A stretch of DNA of 18,867 bases, taken from positions 1 through 18,867 of the forward strand of contig CBFGJZ010000030.1 in assembly GCA_965649215.1 (NCBI GenBank), written 5' to 3'. A program made the translations under genes and the position numbers. Of this stretch, positions 1,726-18,867 are shown one piece after another (within the stretch, counting starts at the first letter, position 1; the number at the start of each line of letters is the position of its first letter). The DNA is from a candidate division WOR-3 bacterium (lineage in GTDB: Bacteria > Hydrothermota > Tepidihabitantia > Tepidihabitantales > CAIPLT01). The notes beneath the pieces were generated by a model, which was not told where the DNA came from, did not search any database, and saw only the letters and a list, made by a program, of their open reading frames with translations.

Positions 1726-1928
1726 GAGGCAAGATAAAAAAATTATGAAAGAGTTTGTCGCCATTTTAAAAATTATAAAAAGTTTTTGAAAACCAAAGAG
1801 TTACAAAATTTTTTATACTTTATCAATTAAAGCGAAAAAGTGTATTTTCTCTATTTTATTACTATCCAGGATCTATTAGGGTAAAATAAATATTGATTAT
1901 TCCCTTTTTTTATATAATAATATTTAGT

Positions 1929-3785
1929 ATGAGTAGTTATTTAAGCTTTCAAAAGCCAAGTTTGAGTGAATCTTTACTGAGCCAAGTGAAACATCTAGTT
2001 AATCAGAATCGGCACTCTGAAATTGAAGCATTGTTTTTACGATTTTTATCAAAACAGCTTGCTGAAAGTACTATTCAAACTCAAACCACTTTCATCTCAG
2101 ACGCATCAAATACTGCTTTTATTGACTTAAAAAATGCATTGCAATATTTAGTCACTCCTCCTCTCAATCTTACTAATTTAGCCAAACAAATCGCTTCCAA
2201 TTTGTTTAATTATATCGTTGAGAATTATCCATCAGAAATTATATTATCTTATTTACGAAATGCCTATTTTTTACTTGATGGAGACCATACATTCAGGAAA
2301 AAAATTGTTCAAATTTATAAAGACAATTACCCTAATCTCATTAACTTAGATACTTTAGTTCATATCTCAAAAATTGATAGCGCTGATTTCAAATCTACCT
2401 TTGAGCAATTTGATAAGTTGGTTGCTTTTGCGAACAAATCACCTATTTATTCTAGTCGGTTTGGTTATGGCGAAATCATTGAGTTTGATTTTTTATTGGA
2501 GACAATAACCTGCAATTTTTTCCCATCTAACATTCAGACCATTCCTGTTGATAGTGCAGTAAAATCTTTTCAAGTATTACCGACGGATAATTTTTACTAT
2601 CTAAAAGCAAAAAACCCTAAGGCTATTCTAAAAATGCTTAAAGATAATCCAACCCATCTCTTAAAGATTATTCAACGGGATGTGAATAATGAACTCACGA
2701 GCAGCTTTATAAAATCTTTATTGTCAGATATTGCGGACAAGACGGATATCAAACCATTGCTAATATTATTAAGACCATCTCAAAAAAATACTGTCCGAAA
2801 ACTCAAACCAAACCAAACACTACAACAGCTTCAAAATCTCCGTAATAAAGAAAACTGGCAAGAACAATATCTTAACTTATTCTTTGTGACTACCGATGAA
2901 AAACTCATGTCTCAGATTATCAAAGAGCTTGATACCTCTTACCGTGATAAACTTATTCAAAAAGCAACTGAAAATTATAAAAAATATCCTCATCAATTTC
3001 TTTTTGTCGAGAGCTTTTTCTCACCGAATCTAATCAATGATGTAAATTTAACCTTATTTCGTTATTTAGAATTAGCTGTAAAGTCTAAAACCTTTGCTCG
3101 TCAGGTGCGCAAACTTATCATCTCTGATAAGTTTCGTATAATCAACGAAGCACTTTTAATAATTGACCAAGACCGTGCTCAGTCGCTTTGGCAAGACATC
3201 AGGCATCTTTCCGTCTGGTATCCGGAAGAACTCGATCAAATTCAAAAACTCTTTGAAACCCAATTTCCGCTTCTCTTTGCCTCAATTACTCAATATACTT
3301 ATCATACTCAAAAAGCGATTGACAATAAAACTCAAGAACTAAAACGACTTGTTAACGAAGAAATTCCTAAAGTTGCATCCGAATTAGCCCAAGCGCGTAG
3401 TTATGGCGATCTAAGGGAAAACTTTGAATTTAAGGCAGCAAAAGAAAAACAGAAACGACTTTTTAGCCAAATTGCTTCTTTAAAAAACCAATTAGCTTTG
3501 GCTCGCCCAATAGATTTTAATAATATCGACTCAACGAGCGTCTCGATTGGTACTAAAGTTATCTTAACTCGCTTAAACTCAAACCCAAATGAAGTTACTC
3601 TGTCAAACCAACAACAAATCACTTATTCCATATTAGGTCCCTTTGATTCGGATCTTTCCCAAAACATTATCTCTTACCAAGCTCCCTTTGCGCAGTTGTT
3701 ATTAGGTAAAAAAGTTGGTGATGAAATTGTTGACCAAGAAGGTACTCGCTATAAGATTATTGCGATTAATAAAGTAAATGGCTGA
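1929..3785 (+). CDS. greA: Transcription elongation factor GreA with long N-terminal extension
   Basis: C-terminal ~160 aa has the GreA coiled coil ARSYGDLRENFEFKAAKEKQ (conserved D/E pair) and the C-domain VSIGTKV..YSILGPFDSD..ISYQAPFAQLLLGKKVGDEI. The ~460-aa N-terminal extension resembles spirochaete/chlamydial long GreA. ATG 1929 is preferred over the TTG at 1893, which lies in promoter-like sequence. Confidence 0.85.
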   Translation: MSSYLSFQKPSLSESLLSQVKHLVNQNRHSEIEALFLRFLSKQLAESTIQTQTTFISDASNTAFIDLKNALQYLVTPPLNLTNLAKQIASNLFNYIVENYPSEIILSYLRNAYFLLDGDHTFRKKIVQIYKDNYPNLINLDTLVHISKIDSADFKSTFEQFDKLVAFANKSPIYSSRFGYGEIIEFDFLLETITCNFFPSNIQTIPVDSAVKSFQVLPTDNFYYLKAKNPKAILKMLKDNPTHLLKIIQRDVNNELTSSFIKSLLSDIADKTDIKPLLILLRPSQKNTVRKLKPNQTLQQLQNLRNKENWQEQYLNLFFVTTDEKLMSQIIKELDTSYRDKLIQKATENYKKYPHQFLFVESFFSPNLINDVNLTLFRYLELAVKSKTFARQVRKLIISDKFRIINEALLIIDQDRAQSLWQDIRHLSVWYPEELDQIQKLFETQFPLLFASITQYTYHTQKAIDNKTQELKRLVNEEIPKVASELAQARSYGDLRENFEFKAAKEKQKRLFSQIASLKNQLALARPIDFNNIDSTSVSIGTKVILTRLNSNPNEVTLSNQQQITYSILGPFDSDLSQNIISYQAPFAQLLLGKKVGDEIVDQEGTRYKIIAINKVNG

Positions 3786-4425: not shown

Positions 4426-6060
4426 TTATTTCAGAACAATTAAGCGTCGAATAAGATTATTAGATTCAGTTTTTATATTAACAAAATAGACCCCTGCCTT
4501 AATTTCGTTTACATCTAACCTAATATTAAACACATTTGAACTTTTTAACTTTTGAATCTTGATGACATTGCCTGATAAATCCAGGATTTTTACTTCCTGT
4601 AGCGGTAATTCGGTCTTCACATAAAGCACAGATTTTGCTGGATTAGGATAGATTATTAAATCTGGATCTCTTGCCATTTGATTTGAAAGCTGACTGCTAT
4701 TACGAGTCTTCATCTCTTTGGTATTACTAACTCGACAGCTCTTTTCATAAGCAAGATAATTTTGTGAAGTTACAGTAATCCAGATACTATCAATATTACT
4801 TGGTTCGATTAAAAAACTAACATTACCAAAAGAATCGGTCTTGTCTAAATAATAAAAATTATCGTCATCTGCTGCGCTGATACAGACCCAAGCATTAACA
4901 ATCGGCTCACCCTGCTCGTTTCTAACCATTACTGTAAATGTCTGAGGTGATGCGTTAATAATTGTATCGTGTTGGATTATCATTGGTTTTGGCACTCCAG
5001 TCCATAAACTCATCGTCGGGTCTCCTAAAAGATTCCATTCCGAATACAGAATATGACCAAAAGAATCAGGTGTAAATTGCCAAAGACTATCCAAACCTTG
5101 CTTTAATGCTTGACCGATATTAATTACTTTATTTTGAAAAATTGCTCGGAAAAAATTACGGCCGACAAAATTACGATACCGCGCGTATAATCCCGAAGTC
5201 GTAGTTCCTAAATACGCTACTGCACCGCGTGGATTTCTAACATTACCTGCTTTAAGCCACTTCTGTCCTAAATATCTCGGTTGTAATACAGTTTGACAAG
5301 ACCACGATAAAATTATTGGTGTTTTATTCTTGTTATTAAGATAGGGACACACTTTAAATGGTTCTGGCCAGTGGGTTCCTGCGCCATGCCCCGTATAGAA
5401 AAGATAAGATCGGCCCTGCTTTAGAGAATCTCGCACATCATTATGATTATGAGCAGGATTATATAAAGTATCAACCTGCACAAAATCACTGTTGTTCAGA
5501 ATCATAGCTCGGACAAAATTAACGCCTGCATTATGATAAGGTCCTGGGTCTTGACGGATAGTCAACGCTCGTTTATAAAACATCGTGTCTGTTAAATCAA
5601 CTCTTCGTTCATATCGCAATATTTTAGCAATCATTGATTGCAACTGGCGTTTAGTTCTGGCCGGCAACCGTCCGACGCACATTTCTAAAAGAGTATCACC
5701 ATTTACATCACCATATGGATTATCACTCGCTCCAACATTGGGATGCGGGTACGGCGGCAGATAATTAATATCACCGACCAATAAGATATATTCCGGAATA
5801 ATTTCCCACCCATAATAAGCATTATTAATATAATCTCTTATCAACTCTGGTTTGCGATCTCCTATTTCAGAAAGTTTCACGATTTTAGTTAAATAACCTT
5901 TCTTATGTTTCCATTGGGCAAATTCATGAAGTGTATTGTAAAAACGGTCCTCAGTAATTATTAATAAATTTGCTCCCCGGCTTTGATTAAAGTCATTGGC
6001 TATGGAAGAAACTACCGCAAATACCATTAAACTAAAGAATAGAATTAACCCTTTGTTCAT
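4426..6060 (-). CDS. C25 family (gingipain-like) cysteine peptidase with T9SS type A C-terminal sorting domain
   Basis: Signal peptide. C25 motifs LLIIT..F....QWKHKKG, YILLVGD, SDNPYG, VGRLPA, catalytic YTGHG and SWSC, GAVAYLG, WNLLGDP. Then an Ig-like domain and a CTD IYPNPA...DLSG...AGVYFV...LIVLK. Confidence 0.9.
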   Translation of the reverse strand: MNKGLILFFSLMVFAVVSSIANDFNQSRGANLLIITEDRFYNTLHEFAQWKHKKGYLTKIVKLSEIGDRKPELIRDYINNAYYGWEIIPEYILLVGDINYLPPYPHPNVGASDNPYGDVNGDTLLEMCVGRLPARTKRQLQSMIAKILRYERRVDLTDTMFYKRALTIRQDPGPYHNAGVNFVRAMILNNSDFVQVDTLYNPAHNHNDVRDSLKQGRSYLFYTGHGAGTHWPEPFKVCPYLNNKNKTPIILSWSCQTVLQPRYLGQKWLKAGNVRNPRGAVAYLGTTTSGLYARYRNFVGRNFFRAIFQNKVINIGQALKQGLDSLWQFTPDSFGHILYSEWNLLGDPTMSLWTGVPKPMIIQHDTIINASPQTFTVMVRNEQGEPIVNAWVCISAADDDNFYYLDKTDSFGNVSFLIEPSNIDSIWITVTSQNYLAYEKSCRVSNTKEMKTRNSSQLSNQMARDPDLIIYPNPAKSVLYVKTELPLQEVKILDLSGNVIKIQKLKSSNVFNIRLDVNEIKAGVYFVNIKTESNNLIRRLIVLK

Positions 6061-6171: not shown

Positions 6172-7425
6172 ATGGTTGAAAATACCGATTTTCAAGCACC
6201 CCTTGCTGAACGATTACGACCAAAAGATTTATCTGAGATTGTTGGTCAAGAACACCTTCTTGGCGAAGATAAACCTTTACGCAAGATGATTGAAAAAGGT
6301 GAACTCCATTCCATGATCTTTTGGGGTCCGCCTGGCTCAGGTAAAACAACATTAGCTAGGATTATTGCTCACTACACCAAAGCAAATTTTATTTCTTTTA
6401 GCGCGGTCACTTCCGGCGTTGCAGACATTCGTCGGGTGATCAAAGAGGCAGAACAAAATCGTTTAGTACATAACAAATCAACGATTCTCTTTGTTGACGA
6501 AATTCATCGGTTCAACAAAACTCAACAAGATGCATTTTTACCCCATGTTGAAGCAGGCAAAATCATCTTGATTGGGGCAACCACTGAAAACCCTTCCTTT
6601 GAAGTCATTGGACCTTTACTATCTCGTTGTCGTGTCTATATTCTGCATCAACTCAAGCCCGAAAACATCAAAACTATTCTCAAGCGGGCACTCACTCATC
6701 CTAACGGTTTAAAAGATCTAAATCCCAGTGTTTCAGAAAAAATCTTAGATTATATTGTCAATATTGCTCAAGGTGATGCCAGAGTGGCACTAACCATTCT
6801 TGATTTAGCCGTCCACGCAACCGAACCCGACAAGGATAATACAAGAAAAGTCACAGAAACAACCATTGAACAAATCGCTTCTCGTAAGATTTTATTATAT
6901 GATAAAAGTGGGGAAGAACATTATAATTTAATTTCAGCACTTCACAAATCATTAAGAGATTCTGACCCTGATGCTTCATTATACTGGTTAGCAAGAATGC
7001 TTGAAGCGGGTGAAGACCCTTTATATATTGCCCGAAGATTAGTCCGCTTTGCCATAGAAGATATTGGCGATGCCAATAATCTGGCATTAGTTGTTGCTAA
7101 TGCCGCAAAAGAAGCAGTTGACTTTATCGGTAGACCCGAAGGTGATTTAGCTTTGGCACAAGCAGTCGTGTTTCTGGCAATGGCACCAAAGAGCAATGCA
7201 ATTTACAAAGCATATGAACTGGCAAAAAAAGATGCTCTGGAAAGTCTGACCGAACCGGTTCCTTTGCATTTAAGAAATCCCGTTACAACATTAATGAAAA
7301 ATATTGGTTATGGCAAAGATTACAAATATGCTCATGATTATCCAGATGCCAAAGTCGACCAAGAGCACTTCCCGCCCTCGCTTAAGGGCAGAAAATATTA
7401 TAAACCATACCAAAAGAAGAGATAA
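6172..7425 (+). CDS. rarA: Replication-associated recombination protein A (MgsA/RarA AAA+ ATPase)
   Basis: PLAERLRP, Walker A GPPGSGKTT, Walker B LFVDEIHRFNKTQQDAFLP, GATTENPSF, GDAR, YDKSGEEHYNLISALHKS, EDIG, VPLHLRN, YKYAHDY. Confidence 0.97.
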   Translation: MVENTDFQAPLAERLRPKDLSEIVGQEHLLGEDKPLRKMIEKGELHSMIFWGPPGSGKTTLARIIAHYTKANFISFSAVTSGVADIRRVIKEAEQNRLVHNKSTILFVDEIHRFNKTQQDAFLPHVEAGKIILIGATTENPSFEVIGPLLSRCRVYILHQLKPENIKTILKRALTHPNGLKDLNPSVSEKILDYIVNIAQGDARVALTILDLAVHATEPDKDNTRKVTETTIEQIASRKILLYDKSGEEHYNLISALHKSLRDSDPDASLYWLARMLEAGEDPLYIARRLVRFAIEDIGDANNLALVVANAAKEAVDFIGRPEGDLALAQAVVFLAMAPKSNAIYKAYELAKKDALESLTEPVPLHLRNPVTTLMKNIGYGKDYKYAHDYPDAKVDQEHFPPSLKGRKYYKPYQKKR

Positions 7426-7455: not shown

Positions 7456-7505
7456 GGGAAAATCAGTGTATATAGGAAAATTTTCCTTTAAATATATATT
7501 TTCCC
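7456..7505. promoter_or_regulatory. Nested palindrome, putative operator upstream of the R-M promoter
   Basis: GGGAAAAT-N10-AGGAAAATTTTCCT-N10-ATTTTCCC, all symmetric about 7480/7481 and ending 11 bp before TTGACA (7517-7522). Confidence 0.55.
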
Positions 7506-7516
7506 TTGATGGATAC

Positions 7517-7547
7517 TTGACAAAAAGAAGTTGGAAGGTAATATTAT
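7517..7547 (+). promoter_or_regulatory. Promoter of the R-M operon
   Basis: TTGACA at 7517-7522, then TAATAT (7539-7544) or TATTAT (7542-7547). ATG at 7558. Confidence 0.5.
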
Positions 7548-7557
7548 AAAAATAACT

Positions 7558-8784
7558 ATGCTTCAGAGAAGTAAAGACATCGCAATAAAATATGGTATTG
7601 ACACTAAACTTATTGAGGATATAAGTGACACTGATAAGAATTTAAGAGTTTTAGGCAATGATTTGACTTTTTTAGAAGTTAAAGAGTCTGAACGAACAAA
7701 ACATGTTCATCGTCTCCATCCATATCTTGGTAAATTTATACCACAGTTAGTTGAAGTATTTCTAAAAAAATACTTTTCTGTTGGCACTACAATTCTTGAC
7801 CCATTCTCGGGGTCGGGTACAACTCTAATTGAAGCAAATGTTTTAGGGATTAATTCAATAGGAATCGAATTATCGCCTTTTAATGTTCTAATTCAAGAAG
7901 TTAAAACAAAAAAATATAACATTCCTGAAGTCGAATTTGAAATAAAAGATGCATTAAAAAGACTAAAGACATTTAGCGTAAATATACAAAATAAAAACAA
8001 ATCACTTTTTGATAACTCTATTGAAAAATTCGAAACCTCGAGTGAATACTTGCGTACTTGGTTTTCTGAAAGAGCATTACAGGAAATTTTATTTTATCGA
8101 AGTATAATAAAAGATTATAAAAATCAAGATGTTTTAAAAGTTATTCTTTCTCGTTCTGCGCGTTCCGCCCGATTAATTCCGCATTATGATTTAGCTCGAC
8201 CCAAGAAGCCAGTTAAAGATATTTATTGGTGTATTAAGCACAAAAAATATTGTAAACCGATTGATGAGGCATTAAAGTTTATTAATCGTTATAGTTATGA
8301 TACAATAAAACGACTGAAACAATTTGATAAAATTAGAACCAATGCATCAATAAAAATTATTCAAGGTGATGCCAGAAAAGTAAAATTGCCCCAAAATTTG
8401 AAACTACATGGAATATTCACATCACCTCCATATGTCGGGTTGATTGACTATCATGAACAACACAGATATGCATATGAATTATTTAATTTTCTAAGACAAG
8501 ACGATAACGAAATCGGTTCAGCAAAGAAAGGACAAAATGGCAATGCTAAGATAGAATATGTCAAAGATATAACTAGCGTCTTTAAAAATGTTACTCAAAA
8601 TTTAATAAACGGCGCATTGGTTTTTATTGTGGCTAATGATAAATTCAATTTGTATCCACAAATTGGTAAGGAATGTGGGTTAGTCTTAAAAGATGTATTT
8701 CATAGACCGGTTCTAATGAGAACAGAAAGAGATCCTAATAAATATTTTGAATCGATATTTTACTTTGAAAAGGAAAACTATTAA
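7558..8784 (+). CDS. Type II DNA methyltransferase, amino-MTase with SPPY motif (likely N4-cytosine; M.MjaII-like)
   Basis: HVHRLHPYLGKFIPQLV, SAM-binding motif I ILDPFSGSGTT..EA, GIELS, GDAR, catalytic FTSPPY. ATG 7558 is preferred because the TTG at 7531 lies inside the promoter spacer. Confidence 0.9.
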   Translation: MLQRSKDIAIKYGIDTKLIEDISDTDKNLRVLGNDLTFLEVKESERTKHVHRLHPYLGKFIPQLVEVFLKKYFSVGTTILDPFSGSGTTLIEANVLGINSIGIELSPFNVLIQEVKTKKYNIPEVEFEIKDALKRLKTFSVNIQNKNKSLFDNSIEKFETSSEYLRTWFSERALQEILFYRSIIKDYKNQDVLKVILSRSARSARLIPHYDLARPKKPVKDIYWCIKHKKYCKPIDEALKFINRYSYDTIKRLKQFDKIRTNASIKIIQGDARKVKLPQNLKLHGIFTSPPYVGLIDYHEQHRYAYELFNFLRQDDNEIGSAKKGQNGNAKIEYVKDITSVFKNVTQNLINGALVFIVANDKFNLYPQIGKECGLVLKDVFHRPVLMRTERDPNKYFESIFYFEKENY

Positions 8785-9560
8785 TGTCTTTAACAAAAAA
8801 GACTAAAGATAATATTTTTAATTTAGTGGTAAATTCAGTACGAGAAAAACTACGAACCTATCAACCCGAGACAAACTATATGCCTTTTCATCATCGACTA
8901 TTAGGTAAAGACCGATATGCTATGTTTTCTTTTATTCAATCGATGAATACTACTTTTGGAATGTCGATGTGGGAACAAGTAGCCGTTGTTTTAGCAGAAG
9001 GTGCTGGCAATTATGCTGAAAGACAATTTAAGTTGCTGGGTGAAATAGATAAAACAACCGAAACGCTCCTAAGAGAACTACATTATAAATTAAGAAAAAA
9101 TGAAATGATTACAAATAAAGAAAAAGAAATTAATACAATTAGAAAATCTATTAAACAAGGCGAAGCAAAAGTTGATATAGATTCGATTGTTGATTTGTTT
9201 GTAAAAGTAAAAGATACAGAAAATTTATTCGATATCACAAGTGCTAAACCAAATATGAAGGAATTCGTTGCTCTAAAACTTAAACTGTTACGATGGACTG
9301 CGTTGAGAATGAGTCAAAACAAAAATGTTAAAATTTACACAAGATTAGCAATACCTTACAACCCATACCATCCAGAACCTTATGAAAGATGGACATTAAA
9401 AGGACTTTATGATTTAGACAATGGCGAAATTTTAGTAGGACAAGAGTTCTGGAATTTTGTTGGCAGTGGCGAAATATACGAAGATTTATTAAATATTTTT
9501 CAAGAAGCGGGCAACGAGTTACGAGAAGAAATTGATAAAAAGTTTGCTGAATTAAAGTAA
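8784..9560 (+). CDS. Type II restriction endonuclease, TdeIII/MjaII-like family (family members recognise GGNCC)
   Basis: Translationally coupled to the MTase (TAATG overlap, AAGGA SD). Motifs MPFHHRLLG...FSFIQSMNTTFG.S.WEQ, VDLF...FDITSAKPN, LAIPYNPY, LVGQEFWNF recalled as typical of this family. Specificity is inferred, not shown. Confidence 0.8.
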   Translation: MSLTKKTKDNIFNLVVNSVREKLRTYQPETNYMPFHHRLLGKDRYAMFSFIQSMNTTFGMSMWEQVAVVLAEGAGNYAERQFKLLGEIDKTTETLLRELHYKLRKNEMITNKEKEINTIRKSIKQGEAKVDIDSIVDLFVKVKDTENLFDITSAKPNMKEFVALKLKLLRWTALRMSQNKNVKIYTRLAIPYNPYHPEPYERWTLKGLYDLDNGEILVGQEFWNFVGSGEIYEDLLNIFQEAGNELREEIDKKFAELK

Positions 9561-9638
9561 TCACATAAGACGGAAATAGCTGTTTACTTTTTTAACATCT
9601 AAACTAAGTGTTAGCAATTTATTTTCCCCATAACCTTG

Positions 9639-9854
9639 CCTGACTTAGCAGATAATCTACTAAGTAACTGAGCGGGTGAGATAGTAGAAAACCTAGTTGG
9701 TATCATAGAAGATGAAATAGTCTGTAGTCTAATAGAAAACCTAACATCTGAGCTAATTCTTCACTTAGAAGGTGAGCCCCCAGGCTACCTAATAGGTAAC
9801 CTACTGACCAACCTAATAACTAACCTCGTGGATAATCAACTAAGATATGCACTG
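9639..9854. repeat. Degenerate tandem array of 18 x 12-bp units (consensus approx. GGTAACCTARTA)
   Basis: Units in phase from 9639 with no indels, e.g. gataatctacta, ggtgagatagta, gaaaacctagtt, gaaaacctaaca, ggctacctaata, ggtaacctactg, accaacctaata, gataatcaacta. Hand count: column 5 A 16/18, column 8 T 14/18, column 9 A 16/18, column 3 T 13/18. Confidence 0.8.
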
Positions 9855-9902
9855 CCTTGATTTTTACACAATAAGTTTTAACATTGTTAATTGGATTGTT
9901 CC

Positions 9903-10946
9903 TTAATTATTTAAATTTGGTTGCCAGATAATCTTACCCCGCTGATTAATATAGGTAAAATAACTGTCTCCATTTTTTATAACCATGGCTAAACCACCTG
10001 AAAAATCTTTGCCATCTTTAAAAATTGGGTCGGCGATATAACGACCCATTTTATCAATATAACCCCAGCGACCGCCGCCAAAGATTTTACTGCCACCAAG
10101 ATTTACTTTAGCGTGCCCTTCTTTGAAATTACCTGCCAATTCAAAGCGGGGATAAATCTCAATTTTACCCACTTTATTAATATAACCCCATTTCAGTTTT
10201 ACTCTTACAGGTGCTAATCCTTCAGTAAACTTATCTGCCCCATCATATTGAAAAGGAATAACAATGTTACCTGTGCTATCAATAAAGCCATATTTGGTAT
10301 TTTTAGATACTGCCGCTAACCCTTCAGAAAAATCCGAGGCAAAATCATATTGGGGTGGAATAACCATCTTGCCCGCGTGAGTTATATAACCAATTTTCTT
10401 GCTATTGTTTTCAGGTATTACCGCGGCATAACCTTCAGAAAAACTATTGGCTAAATAAAATCGTGGTTCAATTACCAAATTGCCCGTTTTATCAATATAT
10501 CCATATTTACCATTAATTCTTACCGCTGCCAACCTTTCTGAAAAATTAAGCGCATAATCAAATCGTGGTTCAATCATGACTTTACCACTATAGTCAAGAT
10601 AACCCCATTTCTTATCTTTACGAAATCGGGCTAATCCCTCATAAAAATTGTCACACTCATCATATTGAGTTAAAATCTTTATCTCACCATTATTGTCAAT
10701 ATAACCCCAGTGATTCGTCGTATCTTTAATCCGAGCCAAATCGTTAAAAAAATTATCGGCAAAAAGATAGTGTGGGGTGATAATCATTTCACCTGCTTGA
10801 TTAATATAACCATAAAGTTCATTTACTTTTATCGGAAATAATGGCTCAGCACTGACTAATAATGTAGCACCCAAACTACCAATCATAATAATCACCCACA
10901 ACCGAGCACTTCTAATTTTAAACTTCAGATTTTCCATATTTACCAC
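9903..10946 (-). CDS. Secreted WG-repeat (WG beta-repeat/KWG) protein
   Basis: Hydrophobic N-terminal segment, then about 9 units of ~35 aa: (W/Y)G(Y/F)ID..G..VI.P.(F/Y)..A..FSEGLA.V. The start could be ATG 10937. Confidence 0.9.
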   Translation of the reverse strand: MVNMENLKFKIRSARLWVIIMIGSLGATLLVSAEPLFPIKVNELYGYINQAGEMIITPHYLFADNFFNDLARIKDTTNHWGYIDNNGEIKILTQYDECDNFYEGLARFRKDKKWGYLDYSGKVMIEPRFDYALNFSERLAAVRINGKYGYIDKTGNLVIEPRFYLANSFSEGYAAVIPENNSKKIGYITHAGKMVIPPQYDFASDFSEGLAAVSKNTKYGFIDSTGNIVIPFQYDGADKFTEGLAPVRVKLKWGYINKVGKIEIYPRFELAGNFKEGHAKVNLGGSKIFGGGRWGYIDKMGRYIADPIFKDGKDFSGGLAMVIKNGDSYFTYINQRGKIIWQPNLNN

Positions 10947-13779: not shown

Positions 13780-13901
13780 TATAATTACTGCTCTTACTAA
13801 AATACCAAAATAATTTTAATTATCTATATTTTTATTCTTCTCATTACCTTTAAATACGCTCATAACAATTCTTATGAATACTAAAATTTTTAATAAAACT
13901 C

Positions 13902-13929: not shown

Positions 13930-13997
13930 TATTACAATGAGTAGTTTAACAATACCAAATCAAATTTTAGAAATCTGTATGAAAGGGGGTGAAAAAA

Positions 13998-14279
13998 ATG
14001 GCTAAAATCACAAAACAAGGATTAATTGAAAAACTTGCAAAAGCCAATGATGTACCTAAGAAAACTGCGGAAACTATGCTTAATACTTTCATCGACACAA
14101 TTATGATGTCTTTGAAAAAAGGAGATAAGGTAGCAATTCCTGGTTTTGGAACTTTTATGGTTCGTAAATCAAAAGCAAGAGTTGGTCGCAATCCTGCAAC
14201 CGGTGAAAAAATTAATATTCCCGCTAAGAAAAAGGCCGTATTCCGTCCTGGTAAAGAATTCAAAGCATTAGTGAAATAA
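13998..14279 (+). CDS. hup: HU family DNA-binding protein
   Basis: TKQGLIEKLA...KKTAETMLNTFID.I..SLKKGDKVAIPGFGTF....ARVGRNPATGEKINIPAKK...FRPGKEFK. SD AAGGGGGTG precedes ATG 13998. Confidence 0.96.
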   Translation: MAKITKQGLIEKLAKANDVPKKTAETMLNTFIDTIMMSLKKGDKVAIPGFGTFMVRKSKARVGRNPATGEKINIPAKKKAVFRPGKEFKALVK

Positions 14280-14290
14280 ATTCGTATTTT

Positions 14291-14345
14291 AAGAGGACAG
14301 CAAAAAACTTTCTTTTTACTCTTGACTGTCCTCTTTATTATATTT
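14291..14345 (+). terminator. Inverted repeat after HU, probable intrinsic terminator overlapping the mtnA promoter
   Basis: AAGAGGACAG (14291-14300) and CTGTCCTCTT (14326-14335) followed by TATTATATTT. 25-nt loop. Confidence 0.55.
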
Positions 14346-14357
14346 ATATAATATCCG

Positions 14358-15377
14358 ATGCAGCACCACAAAGCCCTACTCTACCACAATCATCAACTTA
14401 TAATTCTTGATCAAACCCAATTACCACACCGACTTAAATATCTGCGCCTAACCAATTATCGCCAAATCATAGGTGCTATTAAACGATTACAGATTCGAGG
14501 TGCACCGTTACTGGGCATCGCTGCCGCTTACGGTTTGGTTTTAGAATCAAACACATCACTTAAAAATCTCAGAAGCCATCTTTTCAAAGTTGCTCAAGCA
14601 TTAAAAACTGCCCGTCCCACCGCTGTTAATCTCAGTTGGGCAGTTGACCAAATGCTTAATATCATCAAAAACAAGAATATCCCAACCTGTCAACTAAATA
14701 AAATCCTTTTAGAACAAGCACGTTATCTAGAACAAAAAGAAATCAATAATTCTCTGCTCATTGGACAGTATGGTGCTCCCCTCATTAAAAATCATAGTAC
14801 AATTATGACTATCTGTAATACAGGCTGGCTTGCTGCACCCGGGATTGGAACCGCTCTGGGAATTATTTATACTGCTCACCAACAAGGCAAAAAAATACAT
14901 GTTTATGTATTAGAAACCCGTCCTCTTCTTCAAGGTTCACGATTAACTGCCTTTGAACTTACTCAAGCAAAGATACCATACACAATTATTACTGATAATA
15001 TGATGGCAACCGTAATGAAAGATACTAATCTTGTCATCATCGGTGCTGACCGTATTGCCCGTAATGGCGATACTGCCAATAAAATCGGCAGTTTAACCTT
15101 AGCAATCACTGCCCAATATTACAAAGTACCTTTTTATGTTGCAGCACCAACTTCCACGATTGACTTAACTAAGCAAACTGGTCAAGACATCCCAATTGAG
15201 CAACGAAGCGCGGAAGAGATTATCTGCCTTGGCAAAAAGTCGATCACTGTTAAAAATGCCCCGGTCTATAATCCTGCTTTTGATGTAACTCCGCACCATT
15301 TAATCACCGCAATTATAACCGAACAAGGAATTCTCAAAAGCCCCTACTCGCAATCAATTGCTAAGCTTTGCGTATGA
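14358..15377 (+). CDS. mtnA: S-methyl-5-thioribose-1-phosphate isomerase
   Basis: LDQTQLP, IRGAPLLG, ARPTAVNL, TICNTGWLA, ETRPLLQGSRLTAFEL, GADRIARNGDTANKIG, IPIEQR, NPAFDVTP..LITAIITE. Confidence 0.95.
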   Translation: MQHHKALLYHNHQLIILDQTQLPHRLKYLRLTNYRQIIGAIKRLQIRGAPLLGIAAAYGLVLESNTSLKNLRSHLFKVAQALKTARPTAVNLSWAVDQMLNIIKNKNIPTCQLNKILLEQARYLEQKEINNSLLIGQYGAPLIKNHSTIMTICNTGWLAAPGIGTALGIIYTAHQQGKKIHVYVLETRPLLQGSRLTAFELTQAKIPYTIITDNMMATVMKDTNLVIIGADRIARNGDTANKIGSLTLAITAQYYKVPFYVAAPTSTIDLTKQTGQDIPIEQRSAEEIICLGKKSITVKNAPVYNPAFDVTPHHLITAIITEQGILKSPYSQSIAKLCV

Positions 15378-16759
15378 TAAGGTATAATCAATCTAATATC
15401 TCATCTCTATTAAAAATATTTTTAGCGATTGTTGTTTACTTATCTTTTTTTTATCCAGTTCTCTTAGTTGCAGACACAATACCACCTTTACCTTTAGAAG
15501 AACTAAAAAAACTTAATATCCAATTTCAAGACACGCTCTTGCCTTTTCCTTTGTCTGATACATTCTCATTACAAGTTACGGGTGGTAATATTTTAGCAAG
15601 TTCGCTACTATTTTCTAAAGCGATCTTTAGTAAATCTCACTTAAAAATTTTTGCCTTAGTTGATAAAAATTACGATTATACAAATTACTTGAAATTTAAT
15701 AGCAGAATTAACTACGGGTGGTTAACAATAAACTCTTGGCAAAATCTTTCAGTAGGTTTAACCGATAACTTACGATATGACTTATCACCCCTTGATGCAA
15801 AATCAGCTTATCAAAATATTAATGTTATGTATCATCCAATTTGGTTTATCAAAAACATATACTTTGATACTAAACAGAATATTCGTTTAAGCCGCTATCT
15901 TAATCCTGAAGATAAAAATTATTTGGGTAATGACCTTATCCTAAAAATTAATCACCCAACTTGGCTGGGTAATCTAACTTATCAAACCGATCTCTTATAT
16001 CAGACAACAAAAAAAATAAATTTTGATAACAATCTTAGTTGTAAGGTAAACCTTTCCCATTTATTTTTAATAACTCCTCGTTTCTTTATCCAACCCTCAT
16101 TATCTTATTATCTACCAGAAAAGCAAATCGGTGAAAGAGTAAATTTGGGAATTCTCTTCAGTAACATTAAAACTCTGTTTGATCTTCAACACAACACAGT
16201 TATTCCTTACTATTTTGATACTCTATATGCAAATCTACTTCCGTATCGTTTTGAAACTTCTCCTTTAAAATATCTGCAGTCCGATTATACCCTCACAGTC
16301 AGTATTATATGGCATCATAATAGAATAAAAGGCAGTTTTGCTCAATATAATTCTTACCTAACTTTACAACCAATTCATGATTCCTTATTATACCAAACTA
16401 TACTGTCTCAATTACGAACAATTGAATTTTCAATGCGTAATCAATTGTATGGGATAACGAATAACTTAATTATTAATTATCCGTTTGGTAATTTTTTTAT
16501 AACCCCTAATTTTAACCTTACTGATTCGCTATCTTATCAATTTAAAAAAATGTTGATTGGTTTATCTTATCAGTATGTTGCAAAACGGACCTTGCCTTCT
16601 TATTCGATATTTTCTTTTAATTTTGGTTATCATTATAAGAATATAAACCTCACAACTGTTATTGAAAATATATTTAATAACCATTACTACCTAACGCAAA
16701 CTAATACCCATAAGGGAAGAAAATACTATCTCACAATTAGTTTTAATAAAATTATTTAA
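15374..16759 (+). CDS. Putative outer-membrane beta-barrel protein with TonB-dependent-receptor-like C-terminus
   Basis: ATGA overlap with the mtnA stop. Signal-peptide-like N-terminus. Aromatic-rich alternating strands. C-terminus LPSYSIFSFNFGY...IENIFNNHY.......GRKYYLTISF resembles the last strands of TBDRs. Confidence 0.6.
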   Translation: MIRYNQSNISSLLKIFLAIVVYLSFFYPVLLVADTIPPLPLEELKKLNIQFQDTLLPFPLSDTFSLQVTGGNILASSLLFSKAIFSKSHLKIFALVDKNYDYTNYLKFNSRINYGWLTINSWQNLSVGLTDNLRYDLSPLDAKSAYQNINVMYHPIWFIKNIYFDTKQNIRLSRYLNPEDKNYLGNDLILKINHPTWLGNLTYQTDLLYQTTKKINFDNNLSCKVNLSHLFLITPRFFIQPSLSYYLPEKQIGERVNLGILFSNIKTLFDLQHNTVIPYYFDTLYANLLPYRFETSPLKYLQSDYTLTVSIIWHHNRIKGSFAQYNSYLTLQPIHDSLLYQTILSQLRTIEFSMRNQLYGITNNLIINYPFGNFFITPNFNLTDSLSYQFKKMLIGLSYQYVAKRTLPSYSIFSFNFGYHYKNINLTTVIENIFNNHYYLTQTNTHKGRKYYLTISFNKII

Positions 16760-16822: not shown

Positions 16823-18867
16823 TTATTTTATAACTAATATGGGTTTTGTTATTAAGTTGCGATTACAATTATATTCAAGATAATAAATCCCAGTTGCTAA
16901 ATTTGATAGTGTTATTGTTCTTGAATAAATACCTTGATCACAAGACTCATCGATTAACTTTTTAATTAGGCTCCCAGCGCTATTATATAATTTCACACTA
17001 ATCTTACTTCGTATTGGCACATAATAGGTTAGTGATAACATATTTTGGCAAGGATTAGGTTGAAGATTTATAAACTGATGTTCTAACTGACTCAACTTAG
17101 ATGATTGTTCGGTCATGGTCACATCATAAATCCTGACATTAGTTGGCATTATATCATTATAATATCCGAATTGATAAGACCAAAACTCTTGCGTATTATT
17201 GCCTTTTAATAGATAAATTCGGTGATTCCAAAATGCCAGTGCAGCTCCACCTTTTGGTACTGATTTCTTATTATATGGTAATGCGGGGATTGTTTCTTTT
17301 CTTGTCCACGAATTTGCTTGTGGGTTATATTGCCAAAATTCATTAGAACCACCGCCTTTAATCGCGTAGACAAAATAACCATCATTTGTTAATGCACCAC
17401 CGTTTTTAACTTTAACTTTCTTGTTTGTTCGTGGATTTAACAAGGGGATTGATTCTCGCATCGTCCATTGATCCAAGGTAATATAATAACTCACAAAATA
17501 ATTATTTTTCGCACTACCTTTAAGGACATAAATCGTATCCTCTAATAAAGTCATATCACTACCATCCTTGTATGCTTTATAATCCGGATTATACAACGCC
17601 CTTGCACAAACTTGCCAATTCTTCGTGATGGTATCATAAGCAAAGAAGTTCTGTTCGGGATACCTTACCGAACCTGCTAACAAATAAATTTTACCATTGC
17701 CAAAGACAATTTTTGAACCACCTTTTAATCCTTTTGAGATTGGCACCTCAGTTTTATATGACCATTGATTTTCGGAAATATTATATTGCCATAATTCATT
17801 ACTGCCACCACCCTTGATCGCAAAGATTTTATTATCGCCATCATATGTTAATGCTGCGCCTTTCTTTATATTTTTCTTTACCTCTTTGTCATTTACAAAA
17901 CGGTTTGGGATTGCTGTCATTTGATACCAATTAACTCCATCGTACTTATAAAATTCACGGCTGTTATTACCGCGAAATGCGAACAGACCAGAACTAGTTG
18001 CTACTAAAGCACCGCCATCTTTAACGTACTTTCCCGTCAATTGAGTCGGAAAATTTGTCTGCTGTAACCAACCAGCTGGTTCAGGTCGTTCAAGAACCAC
18101 AACTGTGCCATTTACCGTATCATTTAATGGATTATCATCAGTCGTCAATTTAGTATAACATTGTGTATAATAAGTGCCGACCAAAGCATTAAAATTACCA
18201 AATTCTACTTCGTTTGAGCTATCGGGTAGTAGATTTGCAACATATCGCTGCTGGCTAAAAACGATGTTATTATTAACATCCCGAATTAAAAAATATGCGG
18301 TACAGGAAGCAACCCGGTGATAATAATTTTTTACTAAGGCCCTTACTGAAATTTGTCCTGTATATTGAGTTCCCGTTGGACTTACAATTTCATGAATACC
18401 AACATCATGAAATCTAACTTGCACATTACCCGTTAACACATTATTTCCTGAATTATAATCATCTCCAAGCATCGTTGAACATCTGGTTATGAAATTACCA
18501 AAGTATCTTGCAGTCCAAGGGGCAAAAGAAACAACTTGATAAGAATTACCTGCAATGGTTGCGGTTTGAATATTAGAATAACCGTCATTAATTTCAAACT
18601 TAACATTGCAACTTATCGGATTGGGACCATAATTAGCAATCACTGCGACGGGATTAGTAACAAAACCAGAATCAACAACACCGTTCGGTGCTTCGATTAA
18701 AAGCGGGCTTGCATCTTTATTAAAAGTAAATAAAATAGCAGTTTGGGCAGTTGGTTTATGTGCTGATGGCGAGCCATTCACTACATATTGTTGATAATAA
18801 TTATTTGCACCAATACCACCTTGAATACCAATGGTACATGATGTGTCAGAAACTTGGGAAACTCGTT
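16823..18867 (-). CDS. Kelch-repeat protein with Ig/CARDB-like domains and T9SS type A C-terminal domain (partial; 5' end beyond the window)
   Basis: Frame stays open upstream of the track's GTG 18781 to the window edge (RVSQVSDTSCTIGIQGGIGANNYYQQYV). Two Ig-like units ending DD..S/PxNxT/V. Six K.GG/GA..L......Y..KG....EFW.Y repeats. CTD QPNP...KLYNSAG...LATGIYYL...KPILVIK. Confidence 0.88.
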   Translation of the reverse strand, partial: RVSQVSDTSCTIGIQGGIGANNYYQQYVVNGSPSAHKPTAQTAILFTFNKDASPLLIEAPNGVVDSGFVTNPVAVIANYGPNPISCNVKFEINDGYSNIQTATIAGNSYQVVSFAPWTARYFGNFITRCSTMLGDDYNSGNNVLTGNVQVRFHDVGIHEIVSPTGTQYTGQISVRALVKNYYHRVASCTAYFLIRDVNNNIVFSQQRYVANLLPDSSNEVEFGNFNALVGTYYTQCYTKLTTDDNPLNDTVNGTVVVLERPEPAGWLQQTNFPTQLTGKYVKDGGALVATSSGLFAFRGNNSREFYKYDGVNWYQMTAIPNRFVNDKEVKKNIKKGAALTYDGDNKIFAIKGGGSNELWQYNISENQWSYKTEVPISKGLKGGSKIVFGNGKIYLLAGSVRYPEQNFFAYDTITKNWQVCARALYNPDYKAYKDGSDMTLLEDTIYVLKGSAKNNYFVSYYITLDQWTMRESIPLLNPRTNKKVKVKNGGALTNDGYFVYAIKGGGSNEFWQYNPQANSWTRKETIPALPYNKKSVPKGGAALAFWNHRIYLLKGNNTQEFWSYQFGYYNDIMPTNVRIYDVTMTEQSSKLSQLEHQFINLQPNPCQNMLSLTYYVPIRSKISVKLYNSAGSLIKKLIDESCDQGIYSRTITLSNLATGIYYLEYNCNRNLITKPILVIK

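Follow-up and report, generated by a model that had tools for sequence, protein, structure and literature searches.

The array locus and its relatives

The window analysed here is an 18,867-bp stretch of DNA from a candidate division WOR-3 bacterium (contig CBFGJZ010000030.1), and it contains a tandem array of degenerate 12-bp units located in the spacer between convergent genes. As assigned by Pfam, the gene order around the array comprises an MgsA-type AAA+ ATPase, a DNA methyltransferase, a TdeIII-family restriction endonuclease, the array itself, a WG-repeat gene and two M16 peptidases (Table 1). The array starts 78 bp downstream of the endonuclease gene. The G+C content of the restriction-modification (R-M) genes is 0.30-0.31, that of the genes on either side 0.35-0.40 and that of the array 0.39. 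We take the target specificity of TdeIII-type enzymes to be GGNCC, a site that inspection of the sequence did not find within the array.

Table 1. Features in and around the 12-bp array, in window coordinates
Feature	Position	Strand	Details
MgsA-type AAA+ ATPase	6172-7425	+	Pfam
N6/N4 DNA methyltransferase	7531-8784	+	Pfam
TdeIII-family restriction endonuclease	8784-9560	+	Pfam
28-nt block adjoining the array	9616..9643	+	22/28 match to L001 2986-3013 (minus strand); P = 0.016 against shuffles, modest support
TTG-started mini-frame MPDLADNLLSN*	9636..9671	+	In-frame TTG, 10 codons, TGA
17 head-to-tail 12-bp units	9639..9842		Majority consensus GGTAACCTAGTA; 6-10/12 matches per unit; 0 out-of-phase indels
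Longest stop-to-stop frame over the array	9672..9860	+	62 codons; no ATG, GTG or TTG inside
Unit 18, doubtful member	9843..9854		4/12 consensus matches, the level of the flanks
WG-repeat gene, convergent	9903..10946	-	Pfam; 71% identical to the L001 orthologue

At the comparative level, the M16 peptidase of the contig stands alone in its 90% cluster, and its best relatives, named WOR-3 and Latescibacteria, are 57-69% identical to it. These names overrule a placement in Bacteroidota, which the type IX secretion sorting domains encoded in the window had suggested. A scan of GTDB genomes with this single peptidase returned no loci. When the scan was repeated with an alignment of 24 sequences drawn from at least 120 M16 matches, 17 loci were recovered, only two of which, L001 (67%) and L002 (59%), are close. 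Gene order is not kept in L002, which leaves L001 as the only syntenic relative found, and a distant one (dS of 1.0-1.65 between it and the window). The order of genes in L001 is M16 peptidase, WG-repeat gene, MgsA (90% identical), C25 peptidase (57%), Sua5 and a GreA fusion. There, the WG-repeat gene and mgsA converge on a 422-bp spacer (2724-3145) that lacks R-M genes, whose ORFs do not exceed 58 codons, and in which neither an array nor a period-12 signal was detected. Global alignment of the window and L001 spacers carried little information and yielded no alignable counterpart of the array. Since the R-M pair and the array are both missing from L001, both are specific to the lineage of the window, and the R-M pair is a lineage-specific type II insertion between mgsA and the WG-repeat gene.

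In spite of the high synonymous divergence (dS of 1.0-1.65), the two spacers share the 28-nt block that adjoins the array. In both genomes this block ends in TTG-CCN-GAY, followed shortly afterwards by an in-frame TGA. The block resembles the Bacteroidetes-type -7 motif TAnnTTTG; a promoter reading was dropped after 32 such motifs were found in the window against 29.5 expected. In L001, the stretch at 2860-2965 (minus strand), located downstream of mgsA, is C-rich, very poor in G and made of AAC repeats, with a weak period of 7 (z 3.7), a composition that in our view resembles a Rho-loading site.

Periodicity and units of the array

The array displays a strict 12-base period across positions 9639-9854, and its 18 twelve-mers and their in-phase translation match those listed in the preliminary description of this DNA, which had been made from the sequence alone. 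Autocorrelation over this interval reaches 0.451 at lag 12 (z 6.1), 0.521 at lag 24 (z 8.0), 0.483 at lag 36 (z 6.6), 0.458 at lag 48 (z 5.4) and 0.487 at lag 60 (z 6.4), and its peaks are confined to multiples of 12. In 1000 dinucleotide-preserving shuffles, the 99.9th percentile of the best lag was 0.409, so the proposed periodicity stands well clear of shuffled controls (z 5.4-8.0 at lags 12-60). Repeated words within the array tell the same story, as 26 of 30 pairs of 6-mers are spaced by a multiple of 12 (mean of 0.56 in-phase pairs and maximum of 6 in 1000 shuffles), together with all 10 pairs of 7-mers and all 5 pairs of 8-mers. The exact sub-repeats named earlier are indeed present at +24, +48, +96 and +180, and the register is kept throughout the array without any indel, as had been reported.

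The edges of the array are sharp, with 1-6 of 12 consensus matches in the flanking 12-mers against 6-10 of 12 in units 1-17. The count of 18 units put forward initially holds for 17 of them; the last one, with 4 of 12 matches, is not distinguishable from the flanks, and the convincing array thus comprises 17 units spanning 9639-9842. The units are highly diverged (mean identity to the consensus of 64%) and, consequently, standard repeat finders recover only a fraction of them: Tandem Repeats Finder picks up 9787-9826 alone (3.3 copies, score 38), which makes the label "cryptic" a fair one. A period-12 scan of the whole window and the 17 fetched loci placed the array as the strongest signal (z 6.85) among 44,769 windows of 144 bp. 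The second-ranked signal, at L008 13051 (z 5.2), corresponds to ordinary period-3 coding sequence. Another period-12 spot in the window, near 13795, was rejected as plain AT-rich spacer.

Regarding the relationship among the units, mean identity between them is 0.42-0.52 at separations of 1-14 units and does not fall with distance, a behaviour that fits a single amplification burst followed by independent decay. The units are star-like in their relation, and only one pair is identical at 11 of 12 positions. The array therefore consists of head-to-tail units of fixed length that share a common ancestral sequence, as is characteristic of a tandem repeat (minisatellite). Bacterial minisatellites, VNTR loci and decayed, "cryptically simple" repeats are likewise made of units of this kind with one consensus in a non-coding spacer, and a slippage or tandem-duplication origin is presumed for minisatellites as it is here. 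It has been argued that most tandem repeats are seeded through microhomology-mediated tandem duplication (bioRxiv 10.64898/2026.02.28.708716). Two features set the array apart, since the units of the VNTR loci used for typing are far less diverged and a repeat of such age would usually show some out-of-phase indels, of which this one has none. CRISPR arrays share with this locus a regular intergenic repetition beside a defence system, and their repeats are about 23-55 bp in length. In contrast, the units described here are 12 bp long and abut one another, with no unique spacers between them and no cas genes or domains nearby, in line with the earlier statement that the array is not a CRISPR.

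Column conservation, a neutral-decay model and the proposed origin of the array

The preliminary description had remarked that columns 3, 5, 8 and 9 of the unit are kept in 13-16 of the 18 copies, and identical counts were obtained here (T3 in 13, A5 in 16, T8 in 14 and A9 in 16). All well-kept columns are A or T in the consensus and all poorly kept ones are G or C: the mean retention is 13.1 of 18 units for consensus A/T columns and 9.4 for G/C columns, the CC of columns 6-7 being among the least conserved (10-11 of 18). The 77 differences from the consensus comprise 39 transitions and 38 transversions, and GC>AT changes hit 0.31 of the sites against 0.18 for AT>GC. A better retention of A/T columns is what AT-biased neutral decay is expected to produce in a genome with 34% G+C.

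The effect of such a decay was simulated by starting from a perfect 18-unit array whose units decayed independently, under three substitution models (2000 runs per model) adjusted so as to end at the 64% identity seen in the array (t = 0.5). The observed column variance lies within the neutral range (P 0.046-0.092 over the models). Changes at codon positions 1, 2 and 3 number 33, 22 and 22, against simulated values of 26-29, 25-26 and 25-26; one in-frame stop is present, against simulated means of 1.3-1.95; and hydrophobic residues occupy peptide positions 3 and 4 in 14 and 12 units, against about 11-12 in the simulations. AT-biased decay of a perfect GGTAACCTAGTA array by about 0.5 substitutions per site thus reproduces the column conservation, the wobble-position A, the single stop and the polar-polar-hydrophobic-hydrophobic pattern of the peptide. 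An ancestral unit reading G-N-L-V, once subjected to AT-biased drift, yields the tetrapeptide look, a nearly open frame and a retained wobble A, and these features are by-products of the ancestral unit and of mutation bias instead of signs of selection. The retained wobble A had been taken to argue for constraint on DNA or RNA, an inference that fails given that neutral AT-biased decay gives the same pattern.

Taken as a whole, the array is best explained, with a probability that we put at roughly 55%, as an old and degenerate minisatellite confined to this lineage. According to this model, a 12-bp unit near GGTAACCTAGTA would have multiplied head to tail to some 17-18 copies within the non-coding spacer on which the mgsA-side genes and the WG-repeat gene converge, possibly through slipped-strand mispairing or through tandem duplication. 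Once this amplification had ceased, each unit would have gathered AT-biased point substitutions independently, up to about 0.5 per site. An origin after the split of the window and L001 lineages fits with this figure, as dS between them is 1.0-1.65. At present, the array probably lacks any sequence-specific function.

Several observations do not sit easily with a neutral relic. Bacterial genomes have a deletional bias, and the survival of a functionless 200-bp tract undeleted through about 0.5 substitutions per site is unusual. The distance from the 28-nt block to the stop codon of the WG-repeat gene is practically equal in the two genomes (259 bp in the window and 262 bp in L001), which is unexpected if the array had added about 200 bp in one lineage, and the comparison involves a single, distant syntenic relative. 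Two further signals, both weak, favour a constraint on the register. Firstly, columns 5 and 9 are both kept in 16 of 18 units, and the neutral probability of at least two such columns is 0.036. Secondly, no out-of-phase indel has occurred against about 108 inferred substitutions; the probability of this outcome is 0.0045, 0.027, 0.12 or 0.34 if one indel is assumed for every 20, 30, 50 or 100 substitutions, respectively. Indel rates have been placed generally about an order of magnitude below those of base substitution (PMC6054270). The weight of the missing indels is softened by the fact that the unit contains no homopolymer runs and by ascertainment bias, as arrays that had slipped out of register would escape notice.

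These signals are the basis for the alternative that the array is a register-constrained DNA element, in which a cooperative protein would advance in 12-bp steps reading only a few positions of each unit (A at position 5 and TA at positions 8-9), indels being selected against while most bases drift. A conceivable role for such an array would be that of a scaffold, or of a barrier separating the two transcription units that converge here. We consider this unlikely, but of the alternatives to neutral decay it deserves the most attention. In its favour, register has been preserved along 204-216 bp that have taken up about 0.5 substitutions per site, column 8 (14 of 18) accompanies columns 5 and 9, and there is a precedent for phased 12-bp repeats bound by protein. 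It has been reported that tubC of plasmid pBtoxis contains seven 12-bp direct repeats, in two sets, which are coated by TubR (bioRxiv 10.1101/2022.04.29.490116). The period and the phased direct repeats are common to the array and to this type III (TubZRC) plasmid partition centromere. However, iterons and centromeres of the tubC or parC type consist of near-identical repeats next to their cognate genes, and at 6-10 of 12 matches per unit the array is far looser and its units far more divergent. Pfam analysis of the 14 ORFs of the window found no TubR/TubZ, ParR/ParM, Rep or other partition or replication gene, and the setting, syntenic with L001, looks chromosomal. Furthermore, the overall heterogeneity of the columns falls within neutral expectation, and all of the best-kept columns are A/T, which is the outcome that mutation bias would give. 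A phased matrix scan, one of the checks proposed at the outset, recovered no second array in the window, in L001 (including the syntenic spacer) or in L002. With no counterpart found there, in plasmids, in phages or in the proteins searched, the array behaves as a one-off, the very outcome that had been named beforehand as one that would refute the initial proposal. None of the roles suggested initially (a protein-binding array, an insulator, a non-coding RNA or a marker of a defence hotspot) gained positive evidence.

The more specific version of this idea, a chromosomal phased scaffold of low specificity in which only A5 and T8-A9 of each unit are read, whose register is kept by selection and which is coated by a cooperatively binding protein or, as RNA, by a protein that reads repeats, would have its nearest precedent in the TubR-tubC superstructure, although here without any partition genes, and seems to us slightly less probable still. 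In the part of the literature covered, nothing relevant was found on tandem repeats of WOR-3 or on degenerate 12-bp intergenic minisatellites of bacteria, and no phased scaffold of this type appears to have been described in the candidate phylum (WOR-3/Latescibacteria-like). If register were indeed selected, the array would represent a chromosomal instance, in a poorly studied phylum, of a type of phased array otherwise on record only for plasmid centromeres. Should the neutral reading be true, the value of the array is mainly methodological: conserved wobble positions and a tetrapeptide code can arise purely from an ancestral unit and AT-biased mutation, and any claim of constraint on a cryptic repeat should accordingly be preceded by a comparison of its column conservation with a decay model that is base-specific.

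Coding capacity, possible transcription and the restriction-modification cassette

On the plus strand, the frame that reads the tetrapeptides is open from 9615 to 9857 save for the TGA at 9669-9671. The translation is exactly the one listed earlier, together with the remark that the frame has an internal TGA and no good start; the TGA is there, but the absence of a start is not strictly true, as the frame contains a TTG at 9636. In this contig TGA does work as a stop codon, and 2 of the 13 tabulated long ORFs finish with it. Recoding of the TGA, for instance as selenocysteine, was rejected on the grounds that TGA ends two genes and that no RNA element was found with Rfam. The array shows no period-3 signal, lags 6, 18, 30 and 42 being depleted (z -3.9 to -2.6), and second codon positions have changed as often as third ones (22 vs 22). 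Codon usage is atypical too: ten of the Leu codons in the array frame are CTA, a codon used for 9.6% of Leu in the genes of the contig, and six of eight Asn codons are AAC, against 18% in those genes.

Database searches were equally unproductive. No candidate came out of a word-indexed search with the whole frame, the TGA being entered as X, against 5.8 billion proteins with lengths of 40-130 aa, and phmmer with the 62-aa frame against 1.84 billion representative proteins returned only two matches at E <= 0.001. One of them, P0003, was rejected as a homologue because it is a retroelement polyprotein. The other, P0002, is an unrelated protein of 268 aa and of G+C-rich origin, with about nine near-perfect DNLVGSLV repeats, a theme that resembles G-N-L-V. 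The translation of the array, [G/D/E]-[N/S/E]-[L/I]-[V/I/L], is 42% identical to (DNLVGSLV)n over 60 residues. The match slides, aligning in several registers, which indicates similarity of repeat to repeat, and P0002 was consequently rejected as a homologue for being a low-complexity repeat; moreover, the array frame has a stop, no later start and no purifying selection. The best Pfam match of the array frame (E = 0.06) is below the cut-off, and PDB sequences gave no match (best E = 0.62). At the structural level, the ESM Atlas recognition value of the frame is 1259, while 9 in 100 shuffled sequences reach 2300, and the single-sequence AlphaFold2 model contains three helices with a mean pLDDT of 54.6.

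In agreement with the earlier view that the array does not behave as protein-coding sequence, the frame at 9672..9860 is a by-product of a unit that reads G-N-L-V and not a supported gene. It is quite improbable that the array is instead a dead or barely constrained gene for (G/D/E/T)-(N/E)-(L/I)-(V/I/L) repeats, either a 74-codon ORF (TTG at 9636 to TGA at 9858) that the TGA at 9669 disabled in the recent past, or a small helical protein whose translation continues past this codon. The preserved register, the single interruption of the frame, the TTG at the start of the array, the helices of the AlphaFold2 model and the repeat of P0002 all speak for it. Against it stand the codon-position counts given above, a number of stops equal to the neutral expectation, the lack of codon periodicity, a 62-codon remainder that has no start after a functional stop codon, the dearth of homologues or of a recognisable family, the low pLDDT and ESM values, and the absence of an ORF at this position in L001.

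With respect to transcription, the array lies between convergent genes, a position that makes read-through transcripts likely. In this regard, it could be envisaged that a transcribed repeat RNA offers repeated sites to an RNA-binding protein, either as the 3' UTR of the endonuclease operon (plus strand), as that of the WG-repeat gene (minus strand, UAGGUU-type) or as a separate small RNA. We regard this as no less improbable than the repeat gene. The minus strand folds slightly better than shuffled sequence (z = -1.87, 4 of 100 shuffles folding as well), and the conserved 28-nt block adjoins the array. On the other hand, the z value of the plus-strand RNA is only -0.31 (-1.25 for the DNA fold), stabilities that do not rise above those of shuffles in the manner of a structured RNA. 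In neither the window nor the spacer of L001 did any Rfam family reach or approach its gathering score, the best scores in the window being 11.7-16.6 bits against gathering scores of 50-75. A sigma-70 scan, accompanied by a terminator scan, found just one site, a weak one on the minus strand, whereas shuffled sequences contain more. In addition, the window shows no enrichment of the -7-like motif of the block, and no alignable counterpart of the array exists in L001. Rho-utilisation (rut) sites are C-rich, G-poor stretches of unstructured RNA, and the plus strand of the array, with 44 C and 41 G in 216 nt, does not have this composition.

The least probable explanation is that the array did not arise in place, being instead cargo or a scar of a mobile R-M cassette or the marker of a hotspot for defence insertions. 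The proximity of the endonuclease, the absence of the R-M pair from L001 and a direct repeat that brackets the cassette point in that direction; against them, the array is outside the direct repeat, the 28-nt block that separates it from the cassette matches the L001 backbone, its G+C content differs from that of the R-M genes, the endonuclease query matched eight plasmid records (nine rows) that share no more than 46% identity with it and are too distant to be informative, and the array DNA gave only a 39-base match in plasmids (E = 0.09) and none in phages. Given its position outside the direct repeat, beside L001-like backbone, and its different G+C content, the array is provisionally treated as spacer DNA and not as cargo. 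The direct repeat itself consists of 12 nt (7494-7505 and 9617-9628, identical at 11 of 12 positions), and a single similar copy occurs at the corresponding position in L001. Its reading as a target-site duplication around the R-M cassette was dropped, as the repeat is not significant (P = 0.31).

Other features of the cassette and its surroundings were observed in the course of the analysis. An imperfect palindrome at 7456-7505 (25 + 25 nt, 76% complementary, no gap) lies between the stop of mgsA and the start of the methyltransferase gene, and may function either as a terminator or as an operator of the R-M operon. Only residues 18-116 of the 417-aa methyltransferase match the N6_N4_Mtase profile, at positions 117-213 of 221, and the remainder has no Pfam family, which suggests from the profile match a domain order that is unusual or permuted. 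Away from the array, no Pfam family was found at E <= 0.001 for the ORFs at 13967-14371 (134 aa) and 15368-16759 (463 aa). GreA/GreB domains constitute the last ~160 residues of a 630-aa protein of the window (1893-3785) and of a 708-aa protein of L001 (8157-10283), the long N-terminal parts of both having no Pfam family. Finally, a Por_Secre_tail sorting domain (type IX secretion) is present on the C25 peptidase (4426-6060) and on a Kelch-repeat protein (16823-18781) of the window.
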